From assembly GCA_965243025.1 (NCBI GenBank), contig CBDETY010000003.1, positions 5,632,001 through 5,696,000 of the forward strand: a stretch of 64,000 bases of DNA, read 5' to 3'. Below are positions 52,921-59,066 of this stretch, one piece after another. The DNA comes from Candidatus Latescibacterota bacterium. GTDB taxonomy: Bacteria; Latescibacterota; UBA2968; UBA8231. The notes beneath the pieces were generated by a model that saw only the letters and a list, made by a program, of their open reading frames with translations, was not told where the DNA came from and did not search any database. The position numbers and the translations under genes are program-made. Numbering within the stretch: position 1 is the first letter of the stretch; the number at the start of each line of letters is the position of its first letter.

Positions 52921-53703
52921 TCAGGGGACCGCCACCGGCCGGGCCTTCCCCGATGTCGGGTCAGGCCGGACATCGGCCGCCTCCAGGGCGACGCGGAAAC
53001 CGTAGTCGGTCAGCTGCCGGTCGGGCAGGATCGCCGAGCGGTGGGCGCAGCGGGTGACCTTGACGGCGTGCCGCCAGGAGCCGCCCCGGGAGGCGCGCCG
53101 CTGGCCGGCGGCCGGGCCGGGAGGGTTGCGGTCCGGGGAGACGGCGTAGTATCCCGGGTCGTACCAGTCCGAGCACCACTCGTGGACGAGGTCGCCCATG
53201 TTGTGCAGGCCGTAGCCGTTTGGGGGGTCCCGGCCGACGCGGTCGGGGCGCTCAACGTCGTCGCCCCGGTAGCGGGGGTCCATCCAGTCGGGAGGGCCGT
53301 CGCCCCAGGGGTATTCCCGCTCCTCCATCCCGCCCCGGGAGGCCTTCTCGCGTTCGGCCTCGGTGGGGAGGCGGAAGGCGGCGTCCAGCTCGGCGGAGAG
53401 CCAGGCGCAGTAGGCGACGGCGTCGAACCAGCTCACCGCCACGGCCGGCTGCTCCGGGTCGGCGAAGCGCTCGTCCCCCCAGGAGCGCGGCGGCGGGCGG
53501 CCGGCCGCGTCGAGGAAGGACTGGTACTCGAGGCGGGTCACGGGCCGCAGGGCCAGGGCGAAGGCGTCGACCCAGACGCCGTGGGCGGGCGCCTCGTTGG
53601 CGCGGCCCCGGTCGCTGCCCATGCGGAACCGGCCCTCCGGGATCAGGGCCACCTCCGGCACCGCCGGGGGAACTGCGGCGGCGGAGTCCACCGCCCGGCT
53701 CAT
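52921..53703 (-). CDS. Formylglycine-generating enzyme (SUMF1/EgtB/PvdO) family protein
   Basis: FRMGS, FRLPTEAERE, PNGYGLHNM, EWCSDWY, RGGSW, GFRVA; lacks the FGE CxxxxC pair. Confidence 0.88.
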   Translation of the reverse strand: MSRAVDSAAAVPPAVPEVALIPEGRFRMGSDRGRANEAPAHGVWVDAFALALRPVTRLEYQSFLDAAGRPPPRSWGDERFADPEQPAVAVSWFDAVAYCAWLSAELDAAFRLPTEAEREKASRGGMEEREYPWGDGPPDWMDPRYRGDDVERPDRVGRDPPNGYGLHNMGDLVHEWCSDWYDPGYYAVSPDRNPPGPAAGQRRASRGGSWRHAVKVTRCAHRSAILPDRQLTDYGFRVALEAADVRPDPTSGKARPVAVP

Positions 53704-53875
53704 GAGCGGGCCGGAACTTCCCGGGACTCGACGATGCGCAGCCATGGAAACAATAAGGCACCATTCCGGACTCCCGGCCAAGGCGCAGAGCGCGGCGCCG
53801 AGGCCGACCTGCTCGTCATGCCCGGGGGGAAGCTCTACGGCTGGCGACGGGTGCCTGCGGATTCCCAAAACAGAT

Positions 53876-53903
53876 TTGACATACAACCATTTCGTCGTAC
53901 GTT
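53876..53903 (+). promoter_or_regulatory. Sigma-70 promoter TTGACA-N16-TACGTT
   Basis: Consensus -35 and TAnnnT -10 in an AT-rich tract about 45 nt before the ATPase start. Confidence 0.55.
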
Positions 53904-53947
53904 TGGTTTATAAAACAATTCTGCTTTACAACCGAAATGGTGTGAAA

Positions 53948-55177
53948 ATGGAAAACGTCCCCGAGTTCTACACGGGCGCTCCCGTCGACCCGGTTGACCT
54001 GCGTTTCCGCGAGACGTTTCTGGCGGAGCTGTGGCAGACGCTGCGCACCGGGCATGTGGTCCTCACGGCTCCTCGGCGAACCGGCAAGACCAGCGTCATG
54101 GATTACCTGCGCGACCATCCCGAGAACGGATTCTCTGTGGTGTCCATCAGCGTTCAGGACCTGACCCATCCCGCCGACTTCTTCCAGGTGCTGCTCGATG
54201 GATTCCACGATGCGCATCCGGATTTCGTGCGCGGCCGGCTTGCCGCGGGTTGGGAACTCGTCAGCGGTGTGGTCGGAAAGGTCGACGAAATCGGTGTCGG
54301 CGGCTTCAAGCTCGGGCTGCGCGAGAGCGCCCCCGACTGGCGCACGAACTGGCGCCAGTACGGCGACACGTTTCTCGCCCATGCCCGCAAAACCGATACC
54401 CGGATTCTTTTCATCATCGACGAGTTTCCCGACATGCTGCTCAGCCTGTCCCGGGAAGATGAAGGGTTGCCGCGCGAGTTCCTCGCCTGGTTTCGCACCC
54501 AGCGACAGAATCCGGCGCCGGCAAGGGATTCGGTTCGCTGGCTGATCGGCGGCTCGGTCAATCTGGGCGGCACCCTCGACGCCCTCGGGCTGGTCCACCT
54601 CATCAACGACCTCGAAGACGTTTCCCTGCCGCCCCTCACCGATGGCGACATCGAAGCCTTCGTGAAGGAGATGCTGGGCGGCCGGGGCGTCCCCTTCGAC
54701 GACGACGTTACGCAACGGCTCATCGCTCGCCTGGGCAGTCCCATCCCCTTCTTCATGCAGATGACGACCCAGAATCTCTACCGGTTGTGGAAACGGGAGC
54801 AACGCAGGATCACCGGGGCGGATGTCGATGCCGTGTTCGACGCGATGGTCGTCGGTTCCGCGGCACGCACCCGACTGCAGCACTTCCATTCGAGGATCAA
54901 CCAGTACTATGCGGATCCGAAACGCTCGATTGCCCATGCCTTGCTGGGACAGATCAGCGTGAGTGAATCAGGGCTTAGGCGCGCAACCCTGTTGCATGAG
55001 ACGGAACGCCTGCTGGAAGGTCTCGGCGTCACGCTCCCGGTGCATGAACGCAGGCAGATGTTCAACCAGCTGCTGCTCGACCTGGAGAACGATTTCTACA
55101 TCGTCGAGGTCGAGGAGCCGTTCTACGACTTTGCCAGCGGCGTCCTGAAATCGTGGTGGAGGAAATACCATGCCTGA
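53948..55177 (+). CDS. P-loop ATPase (STAND/AAA-like) with C-terminal winged helix
   Basis: Walker A APRRTGKTS, Walker B LFIIDEFP, LIGGS, IPFFMQ. Confidence 0.85.
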   Translation: MENVPEFYTGAPVDPVDLRFRETFLAELWQTLRTGHVVLTAPRRTGKTSVMDYLRDHPENGFSVVSISVQDLTHPADFFQVLLDGFHDAHPDFVRGRLAAGWELVSGVVGKVDEIGVGGFKLGLRESAPDWRTNWRQYGDTFLAHARKTDTRILFIIDEFPDMLLSLSREDEGLPREFLAWFRTQRQNPAPARDSVRWLIGGSVNLGGTLDALGLVHLINDLEDVSLPPLTDGDIEAFVKEMLGGRGVPFDDDVTQRLIARLGSPIPFFMQMTTQNLYRLWKREQRRITGADVDAVFDAMVVGSAARTRLQHFHSRINQYYADPKRSIAHALLGQISVSESGLRRATLLHETERLLEGLGVTLPVHERRQMFNQLLLDLENDFYIVEVEEPFYDFASGVLKSWWRKYHA

Positions 55178-57773
55178 GCCGACCCTAAATTCGAAAATCG
55201 GTCTGTACCGATCCGGCGTAACCAGCCCGGAGCGCCTGCACCGCACCAGCGTCGCGCGCCAACACCTGCTCGACAACGCCATCGAATCCCTGCGCGGTTC
55301 GGTGGGCAGGAAGTCGAAGAACCACCTGCTGTTTATCGGCCCGCGCGGGATCGGCAAGACCCACCTGCTCTCGTGCATCGAAGACGCCGTTCAGTCCGAT
55401 GAAACCCTGAGCCCATGTGTCGTAATCGTCCGGTTCCCGGAGGAATCGAACCGGACGCTGTCCTTCGCCGATTTCCTTATCGGCATGTGCGAAATATTGA
55501 AGGAGGTCCTCGAAGAGGAACCGCTGTGGGCGAAGCTGTTTGCCGCAGTGCAGACCGAAGAAGACGACGCCAGGGTTGCCGACAGGCTGGTGCCGGCGAT
55601 CCGCGAAGAGAACCGCAGGCGCGGCCGAACCATGCTGGTCATGCTCGAAAACCTGGGCGAGATCCTGGACCAGCAAATTCGACGCAAGAACCACGTCGCC
55701 GCCCTGCGCCAGTTCTTCATGGGCGACAACGGCTGCCTGCTGCTGGCCACCGCGCCGAGGCATTTCGACGGGATCACCGACGTGAGCCAGCCGTTCTACG
55801 ACTTCTTCGACACTCAGATCCTGGATAACCTGAGCTTCGGGGAAACGGTCGAGGTCATCCGCCTGAACCTCGAATGGGAAGAACGCACCGACATTCTCGA
55901 AACGCTGGACGAAATGCGCCCGCGGCTGCAAGCGCTTTATCGCATGACGGGGGGAAATCCACGTTTGACGATGATGCTCTACGAGCTGATCGCCCACGAG
56001 TCGGTCATCAGCGTGCAGGATCAGTTCCTCCAGCTGCTCGACCGGATCTCGCCGTTCTACCAGGGACGATTGAACGATCTGCCGCCGGGCCAGCGCGCCC
56101 TGCTGGAATGTCTGGCGAGCATGCGCGACCAGGAGAAGACTCCGGCCGCCATTGCCGCGCGAATGCGCATGAGCCAGCAGGAGACGTCGTCGCTTCTCAA
56201 GCGTCTCACCAGTGCCCACTACCTGCGCGCAGACCGGCACCCGCGGGACAAGCGTTCGCGCCTCTACACGATACGCGAGGGTTTCTTCGACATCTGGCTC
56301 GCGATGAGCCTCTCCCGCGGGGCACGCAGGCGCATGCCGTTCCTGCTCGACTTCTTCAGTCTCTTCTACCCGAGCATCGCGGCCCGCGAGGAAAAGCGCC
56401 GTCAGTTGCGCGCGAAGCTTCTCGAAGAGGGCAGCGATGACGCGGAAAGGTCCCTCGACTACCTGAGTGAAGTCGGCGGCGAAGGGGAGCGGGCGACCGC
56501 GAAGTTCGACATGGCCAGAACTTATGCCCGCCGTGGAGATTTCGATCAGACGGTGAGCTACGTGCGGGAAGCCGCGCCCCTGGCCGGAGACGGAGTGAGC
56601 CGGTCGATTGTCCGCATTGCCGACAGCACTCCGTCCGCTCCCGACTATCTCTCGGAAATCGAGGAGATGATCGAGTGCTGGGAGCTGCACCGCAGTGGCG
56701 AGCTCGAGGAGTTTGCCTACCGGCTGGCGGAGATGGGGGAAGGACTGACCCTCCGCACGTTCTCCGAGACCAGACTGGCGTTTCTGCGAGATACCCTGGA
56801 AAGCGTGGGGGATGCCGAGGATCGGATCGCGCAGCGCCTGGGAATTGCGGCGGTTCTGATGGATCTCGCACGCTGGGAGGAGTGCGAGGAGCAGCAGCGC
56901 CAAGCGCTTGCCGAGGCGACGGCACTCGCCGATTCCGACCTTGTCGCAAGGGCGTCGAACGAGCTGGGGCAGCTGCTGCAGCGCACAAACCGACTCGGAG
57001 AGGCGGAACCGCTGATGCGTCGTGCACTGGAGATCTTCCTGGCCGCCTACGGCGAGCAGCACCCGGAGGTGGCAACTTGCTCGAGTAACCTGGCTTCTCT
57101 GCTGCATGACACCAACCGGACCGAGGAAGCCGAACCGCTGATGCGGCGTGCCCTGGAGACCGCGGAGGCCTCCCTCGGCGAGCAGCACTCGACCGTGGCG
57201 ATCTACCTGAACAACCTGGCGATTCTGCTGAAGGACACCAACCGGATCGGGGAAGCCGAACCGCTGATGCGGCGTGCGCTGGAGATCGACGTGGAGGCCC
57301 TCGGTGAGCAGCACCCAACCGTGGGGAACCGCTTGAACAACCTGGCGAATCTGCTGCTGAACACCAACCGAATCGAGGAAGCCGAACCCTTGATGCGGCG
57401 TGCGCTTGAGATCGACGAGGCCGCCTTCGGGGAACAGCACCCGAGGGTGGCGACTTGCTTGAACAACCTGGCGACTCTGCTGCATGGTAGCGGCCGGATC
57501 GAGGAAGCCGAGCCGCTGATGCGTCGTGCGTTGGAGATCCGCGAGAGGGCTTTCGGTCAGCGGCATCCAGACGTAGCGACACACATGAACAACCTGGCGA
57601 CCCTGCTGCTGGACACTCACCGGATCGAGGAAGCCGAGCCCTTGATGCGGCGATCCCTGGAAATCCTGGACACCTTCCGTCGCCAAACCGGGCACGAGCA
57701 CCCGCACTTCCAAGACGCGAACGAGAGCTACCAGACCCTTAAGCGAGCCATGGGATCCAACGAGCCGGACTGA
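55170..57773 (+). CDS. STAND-like ATPase + wHTH + TPR-repeat protein
   Basis: GPRGIGKT, Walker B LVMLEN, TGGNPR, TPAAIAARMRM..ETSSLLKRL, six 42-aa TPRs; 8-nt overlap with the upstream gene. Confidence 0.85.
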   Translation: MPEPTLNSKIGLYRSGVTSPERLHRTSVARQHLLDNAIESLRGSVGRKSKNHLLFIGPRGIGKTHLLSCIEDAVQSDETLSPCVVIVRFPEESNRTLSFADFLIGMCEILKEVLEEEPLWAKLFAAVQTEEDDARVADRLVPAIREENRRRGRTMLVMLENLGEILDQQIRRKNHVAALRQFFMGDNGCLLLATAPRHFDGITDVSQPFYDFFDTQILDNLSFGETVEVIRLNLEWEERTDILETLDEMRPRLQALYRMTGGNPRLTMMLYELIAHESVISVQDQFLQLLDRISPFYQGRLNDLPPGQRALLECLASMRDQEKTPAAIAARMRMSQQETSSLLKRLTSAHYLRADRHPRDKRSRLYTIREGFFDIWLAMSLSRGARRRMPFLLDFFSLFYPSIAAREEKRRQLRAKLLEEGSDDAERSLDYLSEVGGEGERATAKFDMARTYARRGDFDQTVSYVREAAPLAGDGVSRSIVRIADSTPSAPDYLSEIEEMIECWELHRSGELEEFAYRLAEMGEGLTLRTFSETRLAFLRDTLESVGDAEDRIAQRLGIAAVLMDLARWEECEEQQRQALAEATALADSDLVARASNELGQLLQRTNRLGEAEPLMRRALEIFLAAYGEQHPEVATCSSNLASLLHDTNRTEEAEPLMRRALETAEASLGEQHSTVAIYLNNLAILLKDTNRIGEAEPLMRRALEIDVEALGEQHPTVGNRLNNLANLLLNTNRIEEAEPLMRRALEIDEAAFGEQHPRVATCLNNLATLLHGSGRIEEAEPLMRRALEIRERAFGQRHPDVATHMNNLATLLLDTHRIEEAEPLMRRSLEILDTFRRQTGHEHPHFQDANESYQTLKRAMGSNEPD
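56940..57700 (+). repeat. Six 126-bp coding repeats (kinesin-light-chain-type TPR)
   Basis: EAEPLMRR anchors at 57000, 57126, 57252, 57378, 57504 and 57630. Confidence 0.92.
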
Positions 57774-57815: not shown

Positions 57816-57833
57816 CTGTAAGTGGGTACTCCA

Positions 57834-59066
57834 ATGGTCTGCAACTACGAGGAACTGGCTGCTCTGACCAGGGCGGCTCGAGCAGGGGATCTGCGCGCCT
57901 ACGGCCGAATCGTCGAGTTGACCCGCAACTCGGTGGAGGCGGCGGCGCGGGTAATCATTCACAACCCCGAAGATGCGGAGGATATCGCGCAGGAGACCTA
58001 TGTGCGCGCCTTCGGTCAGCTCGCAAACCTGCAGGACGCCGCCTCGCTGCCGGCGTGGCTCCAGCGCATCGCCCGGAACCTGGCGCTGAACCGCAGGCGG
58101 GCCAGCCGCTGGTCATTTGTCAGCGACTTCGATGTGTCGCAGATCGCCCAGCCGGATGCCGATGCCGATGAACTCGGTCCGGCGCTCGCCCGGGCCCTTG
58201 TCGGACTGGGCGGCGAGGATCGCCAGCTGTGCGAGAGATACTACCACGGCGGTTGGACCACGGCGCGTCTGGCCGGCGAGATGAAGATCAGCGAGGTCGC
58301 TGTCCGCAAACGTCTGCAACGCGTCCGCGAACGCCTGCGAAAGGGAATCGCCATGACCGGAATGGATCTGCCCGAGCGCATCGTCGAACTCCTGTCAAAG
58401 CCGAATCTGACCGCCCTGCCGGAAAACCCGGTGGGAGCTGTCTGGGAGGCATTCAAGCGTCAGTACGACGGTTTTTCAGAGGTCGAGCTCGAGGAGAGAA
58501 TCGACCCTGAAAAGGTCAGGGAGATCCTCGCAAATGCCGGCAATGGGCCGCTCGAAGAGTACCTGACAGCGGCGAGCCGCCAACAGTGGCTGCGGCGTGC
58601 GCTCACGGTGCCGATGGTGATGGAAGCAGCGGGCAGGGAGGCCCCGGTGCAGCTGATCGCCACGGGGAAGACCTACCGGATAGACAACGGGGAGGAGAGC
58701 AGTACCAAACTGCACGCCTTTCATCAGGCCGAGGTGCTGTGGGTCGGGGAAGGTTTGAGCGAGTGGCAGTTGATGGCGCCGTTCAGCGAGTTCATCCGGG
58801 AACTGAACCCGGAAATGGAGCTGCGCATCCATCATTTCGACTACTCGCTCCACTCGGAGCGGGGATGGAAGATTGCGGTTCAACTGCGGGGAATGGAATG
58901 GAGTTCGATCGCGGGGTTGGGTCGGATGAAAGCCAGTCTCCTCGAGGCCCTGGGGTACGACTCGGACCGGTTGACGGCCGTCGCGCTCGGAGTGGGTCTG
59001 GAACGCCTGGCCATGATGCAGTACGGCATCGATGACATCCGCCGGATGGAGGCCGAGCGCGTATAG
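57834..59066 (+). CDS. ECF sigma-70 factor fused to a PheRS alpha-subunit-like (class IIc aaRS) domain
   Basis: Sigma2 DAEDIAQETYV..WLQRIARN; sigma4 AVRKRLQRVRERLR; then NPV..GFSEV, GKTYR..FHQAE, GVGLERLAMMQYGIDDIR; alternative start GTG 57822. Confidence 0.88.
   Translation: MVCNYEELAALTRAARAGDLRAYGRIVELTRNSVEAAARVIIHNPEDAEDIAQETYVRAFGQLANLQDAASLPAWLQRIARNLALNRRRASRWSFVSDFDVSQIAQPDADADELGPALARALVGLGGEDRQLCERYYHGGWTTARLAGEMKISEVAVRKRLQRVRERLRKGIAMTGMDLPERIVELLSKPNLTALPENPVGAVWEAFKRQYDGFSEVELEERIDPEKVREILANAGNGPLEEYLTAASRQQWLRRALTVPMVMEAAGREAPVQLIATGKTYRIDNGEESSTKLHAFHQAEVLWVGEGLSEWQLMAPFSEFIRELNPEMELRIHHFDYSLHSERGWKIAVQLRGMEWSSIAGLGRMKASLLEALGYDSDRLTAVALGVGLERLAMMQYGIDDIRRMEAERV

Follow-up and report, generated by a model that had tools for sequence, protein, structure and literature searches.

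What might two overlapping ATPase genes do when neither protein has an effector domain in front of its P-loop? The question is raised by a stretch of 64,000 nucleotides from a Candidatus Latescibacterota bacterium (GenBank assembly GCA_965243025.1, contig CBDETY010000003.1, positions 5,632,001 to 5,696,000 of the forward strand), which is called the window here and whose own numbering is used below. On its plus strand, gene A1 (53948-55177) encodes a 409-residue ATPase composed of a P-loop domain, a helical lid and a winged helix, that is, of an NTPase-helical-winged-helix module (NOD) only, and gene A2 (55170-57773) encodes an 867-residue STAND-type NTPase with a winged helix-turn-helix (wHTH), a helical linker and a TPR array. 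We propose, giving the idea roughly an even chance, that the two genes are a self-contained mobile cassette for a heteromeric STAND-type switch of the immunity or conflict kind. A preliminary description of this DNA had seen in them a tightly coupled pair of STAND-like NTPases and had suggested a sensor/helper module for conflict or signalling. The coupling was borne out by 79 of 80 loci, by 16 of 16 paralogous loci and by congruent trees, and the suggested role proved plausible and was strengthened by A2 orthologues with TIR or PIN-like domains, whereas the output gene proposed for it, a neighboring sigma factor fusion, did not hold.

Coupling and homology of A1 and A2

The two coding regions overlap by ATGCCTGA (55170-55177), in which the ATG of A2 occupies 55170-55172 and the TGA of A1 occupies 55175-55177. 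This overlap, as well as all motifs quoted in the preliminary description, was present in the sequence and in the list of open reading frames (ORFs). A search with A1, limited to one genome per species, yielded 25 loci, and a wider scan with a 10-sequence profile yielded 80. An A2 gene was located directly 3' of A1 in 24 of the 25 loci (tblastn), the other one (L021) being only a fragment of A1; in the wider scan an A2-type gene was directly 3' of A1 in 79 loci, mostly with a 4-nt stop/start overlap, and the sole miss had only 86 nt of downstream sequence. In the 25-locus search, A1 was 72-94% identical in metagenome-assembled genomes (MAGs) titled Latescibacterota, Gemmatimonadetes, Acidobacteria, Alpha- and Gammaproteobacteria, and 34-53% identical in Verrucomicrobiales, Campylobacterota and one unclassified MAG. 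The 80-locus scan added Competibacter/Contendobacter MAGs (60-63%), MAGs of Binatota, Kuenenia, Planctomycetota, Verrucomicrobiota and Kiritimatiellales (46-59%) and an isolate, Rhodopirellula sp. SWK7. The A1 family comprised 1726 clusters at 50% identity (E up to 0.001), and in more than 120 clusters (90% identity) the N-terminal part of A2 shared at least 85% identity with that of the window.

Only one copy of the cassette was detected in the window's genome. Among Latescibacterota, 41 of 168 genomes had A1 matches (E up to 1e-10), about 8 of which were high-identity orthologues; the remaining matches were paralogues of the same length with 23-32% identity, up to five per genome. All 16 paralogous A1 loci considered had a gene similar to the N-terminal part of A2 directly downstream, and among ten paralogous A2-like proteins TPR were found in 10, AAA_16 in 9 and wHTH in 8. 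Also, the trees of A1 and of the A2 N-terminal part shared strongly supported clades. As judged from sequence, A1 and A2 are translationally coupled, always adjacent and co-inherited.

Distant and decayed forms were seen as well. The two-gene layout, without TPR, is annotated on plasmids of Moraxella osloensis and Clostridium tagluense. On the M. osloensis plasmid pNP7-2 (L052, 68997-84121), a distant A1-like gene and its STAND partner had neighbors annotated as QatD, protein kinase, transposases, dUTPase and N-6 DNA methylase, which looks like a defence-island context. Remnants of A1 preceded an intact A2 in two loci (L024:8001-8294 and L025:8001-8320), an intact A1 was followed by an A2 cut after approximately 62 residues on a Methylomonas plasmid (L054:9229-9396), and A1 of one locus had an in-frame stop near codon 66 (L013, 8001-9227). 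Since A1 was lost with A2 intact and A2 was cut with A1 intact, neither gene resembles an antidote as known from classical toxin-antitoxin pairs.

How are the two ATPases related? An hhalign alignment of family profiles for A1 (90 sequences) and for the N-terminal part of A2 (26 sequences) had a probability of 97.6% and an E-value of 4e-12 over 319 columns, and matched residues 19-402 of A1 to residues 36-388 of A2, from the P-loop through the winged helix. On this alignment the two NODs are homologous, and paralogous to each other. AAA_22 was the only Pfam family matched by A1 (families with E up to 0.01), and the N-terminus of A2 had weak matches to AAA_22, AAA_16 and ORC-CDC6-like; the domain layout of A2 was based on Pfam and NCBIfam, on motifs and on the hhalign match to A1. 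An AlphaFold model of A1 (pLDDT 90.9, pTM 0.89) ended in a helical domain and a winged helix. A Foldseek search with this model ranked two archaeal ATPases of the Walker type first, 2qen (TMt 0.65) and 2fna (TMt 0.64), followed by Orc1/Cdc6, the NRC4 resistosome (TMq 0.53-0.56), Avs3 (TMq 0.45), RFC and RuvBL. The two archaeal proteins were also found by sequence with the A1 family profile (1.7e-8 and 7.4e-8, respectively) and are 13-16% identical to A1.

STAND NTPases are reportedly defined, in work of Leipe et al. 2004, by a P-loop domain, a helical-GxP-winged-helix region and a C-terminal repeat sensor. Walker A motifs were found in A1 (APRRTGKT, 54068-54091) and in A2 (GPRGIGKT, 55338-55361, residues 57-64), together with a canonical Walker B, IIDE, in A1 (54413-54424) and with LVMLEN at the Walker-B position of A2 (55635-55652, residues 156-161), so that DE of A1 corresponds to (E/D)N of A2. 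The helical-GxP-winged-helix region was identified in A2 by Pfam and by its GxP motif TGGNPR (55947-55964, residues 260-265), and in A1 by the model and by the motif, which reads G-x-PIP(Y/F)F in the family alignment. A C-terminal repeat sensor was found in A2, and A1, without repeats, is a NOD-only partner. All these motifs are on the plus strand. Besides, distant relatives of A1 matched nSTAND1 and nSTAND6, and rare members of the A1 family were fused to AbiEi_4 or Schlafen AlbA_2 modules; longer fused forms of A1 were not found in the search, which is weak evidence.

The nucleotide-binding sites of the two proteins appear to have different tasks. R43, G46, K47, W135 and S203 were invariant in the A1 family and D158 and E159 nearly so; its canonical site probably hydrolyses ATP, which would make A1 the active ATPase of the pair. 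In A2, GPRGxGKT, the EE at residues 91-92, N161, R180 and TGGNPR were invariant among 26 orthologues and distant paralogues, and E160 was nearly invariant. The preliminary description had treated LVMLEN as an atypical Walker B. This segment does depart from D(D/E), but it is not degenerate: (E/D)N aligns with the Walker-B DE of A1 and is kept across the A2 family, orthologues and distant paralogues alike, and is therefore a conserved family trait and not a sign of erosion. We infer that A2 may bind ATP but turn it over slowly, as a switch.

The sensor part of A2 is a TPR array at 56820-57719 of the plus strand, with six TPR_12/TPR_10 stretches (Pfam; TPR_12 4.6e-75, TPR_10 3.3e-57). Within it, on the same strand, is a 126-bp tandem repeat (57006-57652, 5.1 copies by TRF) which encodes 42-residue units of the TPR_12/TPR_10 type. 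The length of A2 orthologues ranged from 756 to 951 residues and varied in steps of roughly 42 residues; the median for complete ORFs was 866 residues (n = 59), 5 of the 59 being shorter than 650. The TPR part diverged faster than the NOD part, and the variability within the unit peaked at positions 12, 25, 32, 35 and 40.

Promoter, operator and DNA binding

Similarity upstream of A1 was seen between phyla only over the last 90-100 nt or so before the start codon, with unrelated sequences further out, and downstream it ended at the stop codon of A2. The upstream block, composed of promoter, operator and leader (53860-53947, plus strand), was conserved in 21 distinct loci from several phyla. 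It contains, in the window, a perfect -35 element, TTGACA (53876-53881), and after a 16-nt spacer a -10-like TACGTT (53898-53903, 3 of 6 matches), both on the plus strand. The preliminary description had called this a strong sigma-70-like promoter. The cassette promoter is probably real, given the conserved block, and most of the 21 loci had TATAnT at the -10 position, 16 nt after TTGAC(A); 'strong' was an overstatement in view of a -10 with 3 of 6 matches. A sigma-70 consensus scan did not call the promoter of the window.

A palindrome, TACAAC-N6-GTCGTA (TACAACCATTTCGTCGTA, 53882-53899), is located between the -35 and -10 elements and contains a site of the strict pattern at 53884-53897; further half-sites of the TACRAC type are found at about 53911-53917 (degenerate) and at 53927-53932. 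Repeated TACRAC/GTYGTA half-sites were characteristic of the conserved block in general, and distant orthologues had a CAAC-N6-GTTG architecture, often in tandem, with variants such as CACC...GGTG. The strict pattern CAAC-N6-GTYG was present in 35 of 79 upstream regions, at a density of 5.8 per kb; over the rest of these loci (730,803 nt) the density was 0.089 per kb. Its conservation and enrichment in the promoter of the cassette argue that a cassette-encoded winged helix binds this putative operator and autoregulates the operon. Either A1 or A2 could provide it. The preliminary description had pointed to the wHTH of A2, which is indeed present (56076-56270 of the plus strand, residues 303-367, Pfam MarR_2/HTH_27); however, it is not specific to A2, being the standard third domain of a NOD, and A1 has one too. 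No clear pattern of co-variation was observed between the type of half-site (CAAC or CACC) and residues of the A2 wHTH or of the A1 C-terminus.

Two further sites of the operator type were detected in the window's genome. One falls within a coding sequence; the second, ATACAACTGTGGAGTTGTAT (contig C3:3995441-3995458, L134:2442-2459), is a 20-bp perfect palindrome in an intergenic region approximately 180 nt upstream of a 431-residue ORF which has no Pfam family and does not resemble A1. This palindrome may be a second target or may have arisen by chance.

Could the pair be a transcription regulator with no part in immunity? In a MalT-like scheme, a ligand of the TPR array would alter the binding of a winged helix to CAAC-N6-GTYG, with the cassette as a target and perhaps some promoters elsewhere. 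A conserved palindromic operator that overlaps the promoter is what such a regulator would have, and MarR_2 and HTH_27 matches of the A2 wHTH, a TPR_MalT score of 49.8 bits (cut-off 45), the additional intergenic palindrome and the absence of an effector domain from the form in the window all agree with it. However, the neighbors of the cassette differed in every locus, leaving no conserved regulated operon, and the three operator-type sites in the genome compare with approximately 1-2 expected by chance (our own estimate). In addition, no output domain dedicated to DNA binding, as the LuxR HTH is in MalT, is present, the TIR and PIN domains of relatives (see below) are effectors and not regulators, and mobility across phyla with several paralogous pairs per genome is more typical of conflict systems. 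We therefore regard a purely regulatory pair as rather unlikely.

Mobility, habitat and neighborhood

Does the cassette follow the phylogeny of its hosts? Eighteen sequences from five phyla or classes (Latescibacterota, Gemmatimonadota, Acidobacteriota, Alpha- and Gammaproteobacteria) were within approximately 0.3 substitutions per site in the trees of both genes. Such closeness across five phyla or classes is incompatible with vertical descent, and the genes therefore move together; the trees clearly point to a cassette that is horizontally mobile across phyla. Nucleotide composition provides weak evidence of transfer, the GC content being 0.58-0.66 for cassettes and 0.58-0.70 for host flanks. 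In the window the contrast was small as well (0.628 for the cassette vs 0.656 for the rest). The preliminary description was correct that the cassette is less GC-rich than the adjacent FGE-sulfatase family gene, whose own GC content is unusually high (0.71-0.76 in 500-nt segments).

Sponge metagenome runs were among the holders (X5 with a share of 0.49 and X12 with a share of 0.22), and pieces of metagenome contigs were at least 99% identical to the window. In run X1 the summed depth was approximately 400-1000 on much of the cassette vs 32-39 on the upstream flank, so many variant copies should be present in one community. In one contig of the same run, position 53932 is connected to 57591 through 13 other letters, and 3658 nt, nearly all of the cassette, are skipped; on its shorter side the joint extends over only 26 letters. 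The contig may have been assembled chimerically, or it may come from a variant that is rearranged or has no cassette.

This habitat brings up the possibility of a symbiosis factor, with A2 belonging to the 'eukaryote-like' TPR proteins which pass between sponge symbionts and serve their interaction with the host. The high-identity clade is indeed present in the sponge runs mentioned above, and one study describes lateral transfer of 'eukaryote-like' TPR families between sponge-symbiont phyla (PMC8163846); the cassette may have been counted among those families. Nevertheless, the TPR array here forms the C-terminal region of a STAND NTPase of cytoplasmic type, which is always paired with a second ATPase, and the cassette family as a whole was not restricted to sponges in the 80-locus scan, in which orthologues with 46-63% identity occurred in MAGs of Competibacter/Contendobacter, Planctomycetota, Verrucomicrobiota and others and in the isolate Rhodopirellula sp. 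SWK7. A host-interaction role is accordingly improbable in our view. A caution follows for surveys of sponge symbionts: STAND-linked TPR proteins should not be counted as 'eukaryote-like' host-interaction proteins.

We further asked what accompanies the cassette, using the two nearest ORFs on each side in 22 loci (84 ORFs). Neither a conserved third gene nor a conserved vehicle was found among these ORFs: the most-shared Pfam family, Cupin_2, was present in 3 of the 84, and the Tn3 transposase DDE family in 1. Upstream in the window are the FGE-sulfatase family gene (52921-53886, minus strand) and, beyond it, a nucleoside hydrolase gene, also on the strand opposite to the cassette. An FGE gene was adjacent to the cassette in none of the 25 loci and in 1 of the 80. 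The closest relative (L001) has no FGE gene at its cassette, and the hydrolase gene directly adjoins the cassette there.

These neighborhoods also bear on a role in replication, maintenance or mobility, in which two initiator-type ATPases resembling ORC/Cdc6 would act on iteron-like repeats. Orc1/Cdc6 structures rank just behind 2qen and 2fna, half-sites are repeated upstream of A1, the cassette has spread across phyla and homologues reside on plasmids, each of which would suit such a module. On the other hand, the cassette is present as a single chromosomal copy on megabase-sized contigs, has no conserved integrase, transposase or replication genes next to it, and lacks terminal repeats, its conservation having sharp borders at the promoter and at the stop codon of A2; a TPR sensor and variants with TIR or PIN would be unexpected in an initiator. 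This role appears quite improbable.

Downstream of the cassette, on the same strand, is a gene for an extracytoplasmic function (ECF) sigma factor fused to a PheS-like core (57822-59066), which begins 48 nt (GTG 57822) or 60 nt (ATG 57834) after the stop codon of A2. Its product has ECF regions 2 and 4 and a tRNA-synt_2d match (2.7e-27), and scored 60 bits, below the cut-off, with the NCBIfam model 'PheS-related mystery ligase SrmL'. The preliminary description had named this co-directional gene as a possible output to which the pair might signal, and its closeness and the lack of a terminator-like site between A2 and the fusion gene would allow this. However, the fusion gene did not adjoin the cassette in any of the 25 or of the 80 loci. 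Among five cassette-bearing relatives, a full-length orthologue was present only in genome G118 (86% identity), on a contig other than that of the cassette, and two genomes of the same genus had no orthologue. This output is thus very improbable, and we dropped it.

Effectors, output and comparison with known systems

The preliminary description had stated that both proteins begin directly with the ATPase, and this was confirmed: the P-loop domain starts almost at the N-terminus of A1 and of A2, and no effector domain was found N-terminal to the P-loop of either by Pfam, NCBIfam or PADLOC. Effector domains were found in relatives, behind the NOD. In six planctomycete loci the A2 orthologue exceeded 1668 residues and ran beyond the examined stretch. 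A TIR_2 domain followed the NOD-wHTH part in A2 of two loci, L106 (6205-11226, E 3e-9) and L129 (2579-7603, E 1.6e-10; Pfam); the TIR of L100 scored below the Pfam cut-off, and tblastn revealed TIR-like segments in L118 and the broken L097. The pair of the isolate Rhodopirellula sp. SWK7 is among those bearing TIR. In two loci the match was instead to the PIN domain of the TPR-GreAB-C-PIN system, at 33 bits for L102 and weakly for L098, again after the NOD. Prokaryotic conflict systems are reported to exchange TIR and PIN domains around an unchanged STAND core (PMC8195603, PMC7159879), and of all observations this one speaks most strongly for a role in immunity or conflict.

A working scheme for the heteromeric switch may be outlined as follows. 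One of the two winged helices would bind the operator and autoregulate the operon. The TPR array of A2 would recognize a protein ligand, whose most likely source is a phage or another invader, and this would release the ATP-dependent assembly of A2 and A1 into a mixed oligomer. In relatives bearing TIR or PIN the mixed oligomer would activate the effector, whereas in the effector-less form the output might come from the A1/A2 core itself (through ATP turnover, or through ORC-like engagement of DNA by the winged helices) or from an unlinked partner. The output is the weakest inference in this scheme.

It is conceivable that the A1/A2 core is a complete, effector-less immune system. The TPR ligand would then trigger a mixed ORC-like ring whose winged helices clamp DNA, either the invader's or the cell's own, and arrest replication or transcription; in the resting state the same DNA-binding surface would repress the cassette at its operator. 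The TIR and PIN domains of planctomycetes would be later add-ons, and phages common to the members of a dense community would have selected for the recent spread among unrelated sponge symbionts. We regard this version as rather unlikely.

Several observations weigh against the proposal that the cassette is a heteromeric switch of the immunity or conflict kind. In most of the 80 loci, including the window, A2 is a TPR-only protein of approximately 870 residues and the cassette is effector-less. No match to a named system was obtained: PADLOC v2 gave none for A1, A2, the sigma-PheS protein or 10 distant relatives beyond similarities of winged helices and P-loops. PADLOC models also matched at most 8 of the 84 flanking ORFs (families AbiEi, AbiEii, PDC-M45A, mad3, DrmC, PbeA, Cas3-like and ATPase-Toprim), several of these models being generic and the count having no baseline. 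No phage-borne homologue was found by tblastn against phage records. Evidence of expression comes from a single metatranscriptome library, in which 63 contigs fell on 25 of 30 bins with both genes covered and DNA carry-over is possible; the bins without contigs are uninformative. Finally, the operator and the ORC-like folds fit a purely regulatory or DNA-transaction role equally well.

Is the pair a known system under another guise? No description of it was found in the literature searched, although supplementary tables of PMC8195603, PMC7159879 and PMC8163846, which were outside this search, might list it. The nearest parallel in organization is the two-gene nSTAND2 operon (Kaur, Burroughs, Iyer, Aravind, eLife 2021, PMC8195603), which that paper describes as a mobile operon with a predicted hetero-toroid and a predicted role against invaders; it too has two STAND NTPase genes, and its effector domains vary between members. 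But A1 and A2 had no match to Pfam nSTAND2 (E up to 0.01) and belong to another NTPase family. According to the same paper, one nSTAND2 partner has eroded NTP-binding motifs and a GT4/HEPN effector, whereas the Walker A motifs of A1 and A2 are both invariant, (E/D)N is conserved, the sensor consists of TPR, and the cassette has no GT4/HEPN and is mostly effector-less. In these sources, bacterial paired STAND operons are so far a computational prediction for that other family (PMC8195603). The cassette described here is sharply defined, with a size of about 3.9 kb and a promoter and operator of its own, and is very abundant in metagenomes; its effector-bearing minority and effector-less majority offer a natural experiment on the output of a STAND core.

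The other known systems resemble single parts of the cassette. Avs proteins are encoded by single genes and have an N-terminal effector. Avs3 (PDB 8dgc) has an NBD-helical-WHD core and a C-terminal TPR-like sensor, as A2 does, and TIR occurs in some relatives of the cassette; in contrast to Avs, the cassette has two genes and no N-terminal effector, and TIR or PIN, when present, comes after the NOD. PADLOC found no Avs match for A1 or A2 (E up to 0.01), and the sole Avs match among the 10 distant relatives was Avs5 over the P-loop only (E 0.001). The archaeal proteins 2qen (PABY2304) and 2fna (SSO1545) of PF01637 (ATPase_2) are similar to A1 in size and have the same three-domain layout, and we know of no established function for them. 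A1 of the window did not match PF01637 at an E-value of 0.01, and its distant relatives P0153 and P0194 reached 40.4 and 35.2 bits, respectively (cut-off 33.2). Orc1/Cdc6 proteins (2v1u, 2qby and eukaryotic ORC1/Cdc6 chains) share an AAA+ domain, a lid and a C-terminal winged helix with A1, and repeats resembling binding sites lie beside the gene. The fold match is nevertheless distant (TMq 0.36-0.45, root-mean-square deviation at least 10 Å; Pfam ORC-CDC6-like 19.1 bits, below the cut-off of 27), and the cassette has a variable neighborhood without an origin context; identity as an Orc1/Cdc6 initiator was rejected on these grounds. The activity of MalT-type proteins is controlled by a ligand and ATP. 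Like MalT, A2 combines a STAND NTPase with a TPR-like sensor and scores above the TPR_MalT cut-off, but it lacks a C-terminal LuxR-type HTH (Pfam, NCBIfam) and a conserved target operon, and it has an obligatory second ATPase.

Switches of the STAND/NLR type are central to immunity in bacteria, plants and animals, and paired sensor/helper NLRs are well known in plants. The A1/A2 pair may work like such a sensor/helper couple; it is no Avs protein, MalT-type regulator or Orc1/Cdc6 initiator.

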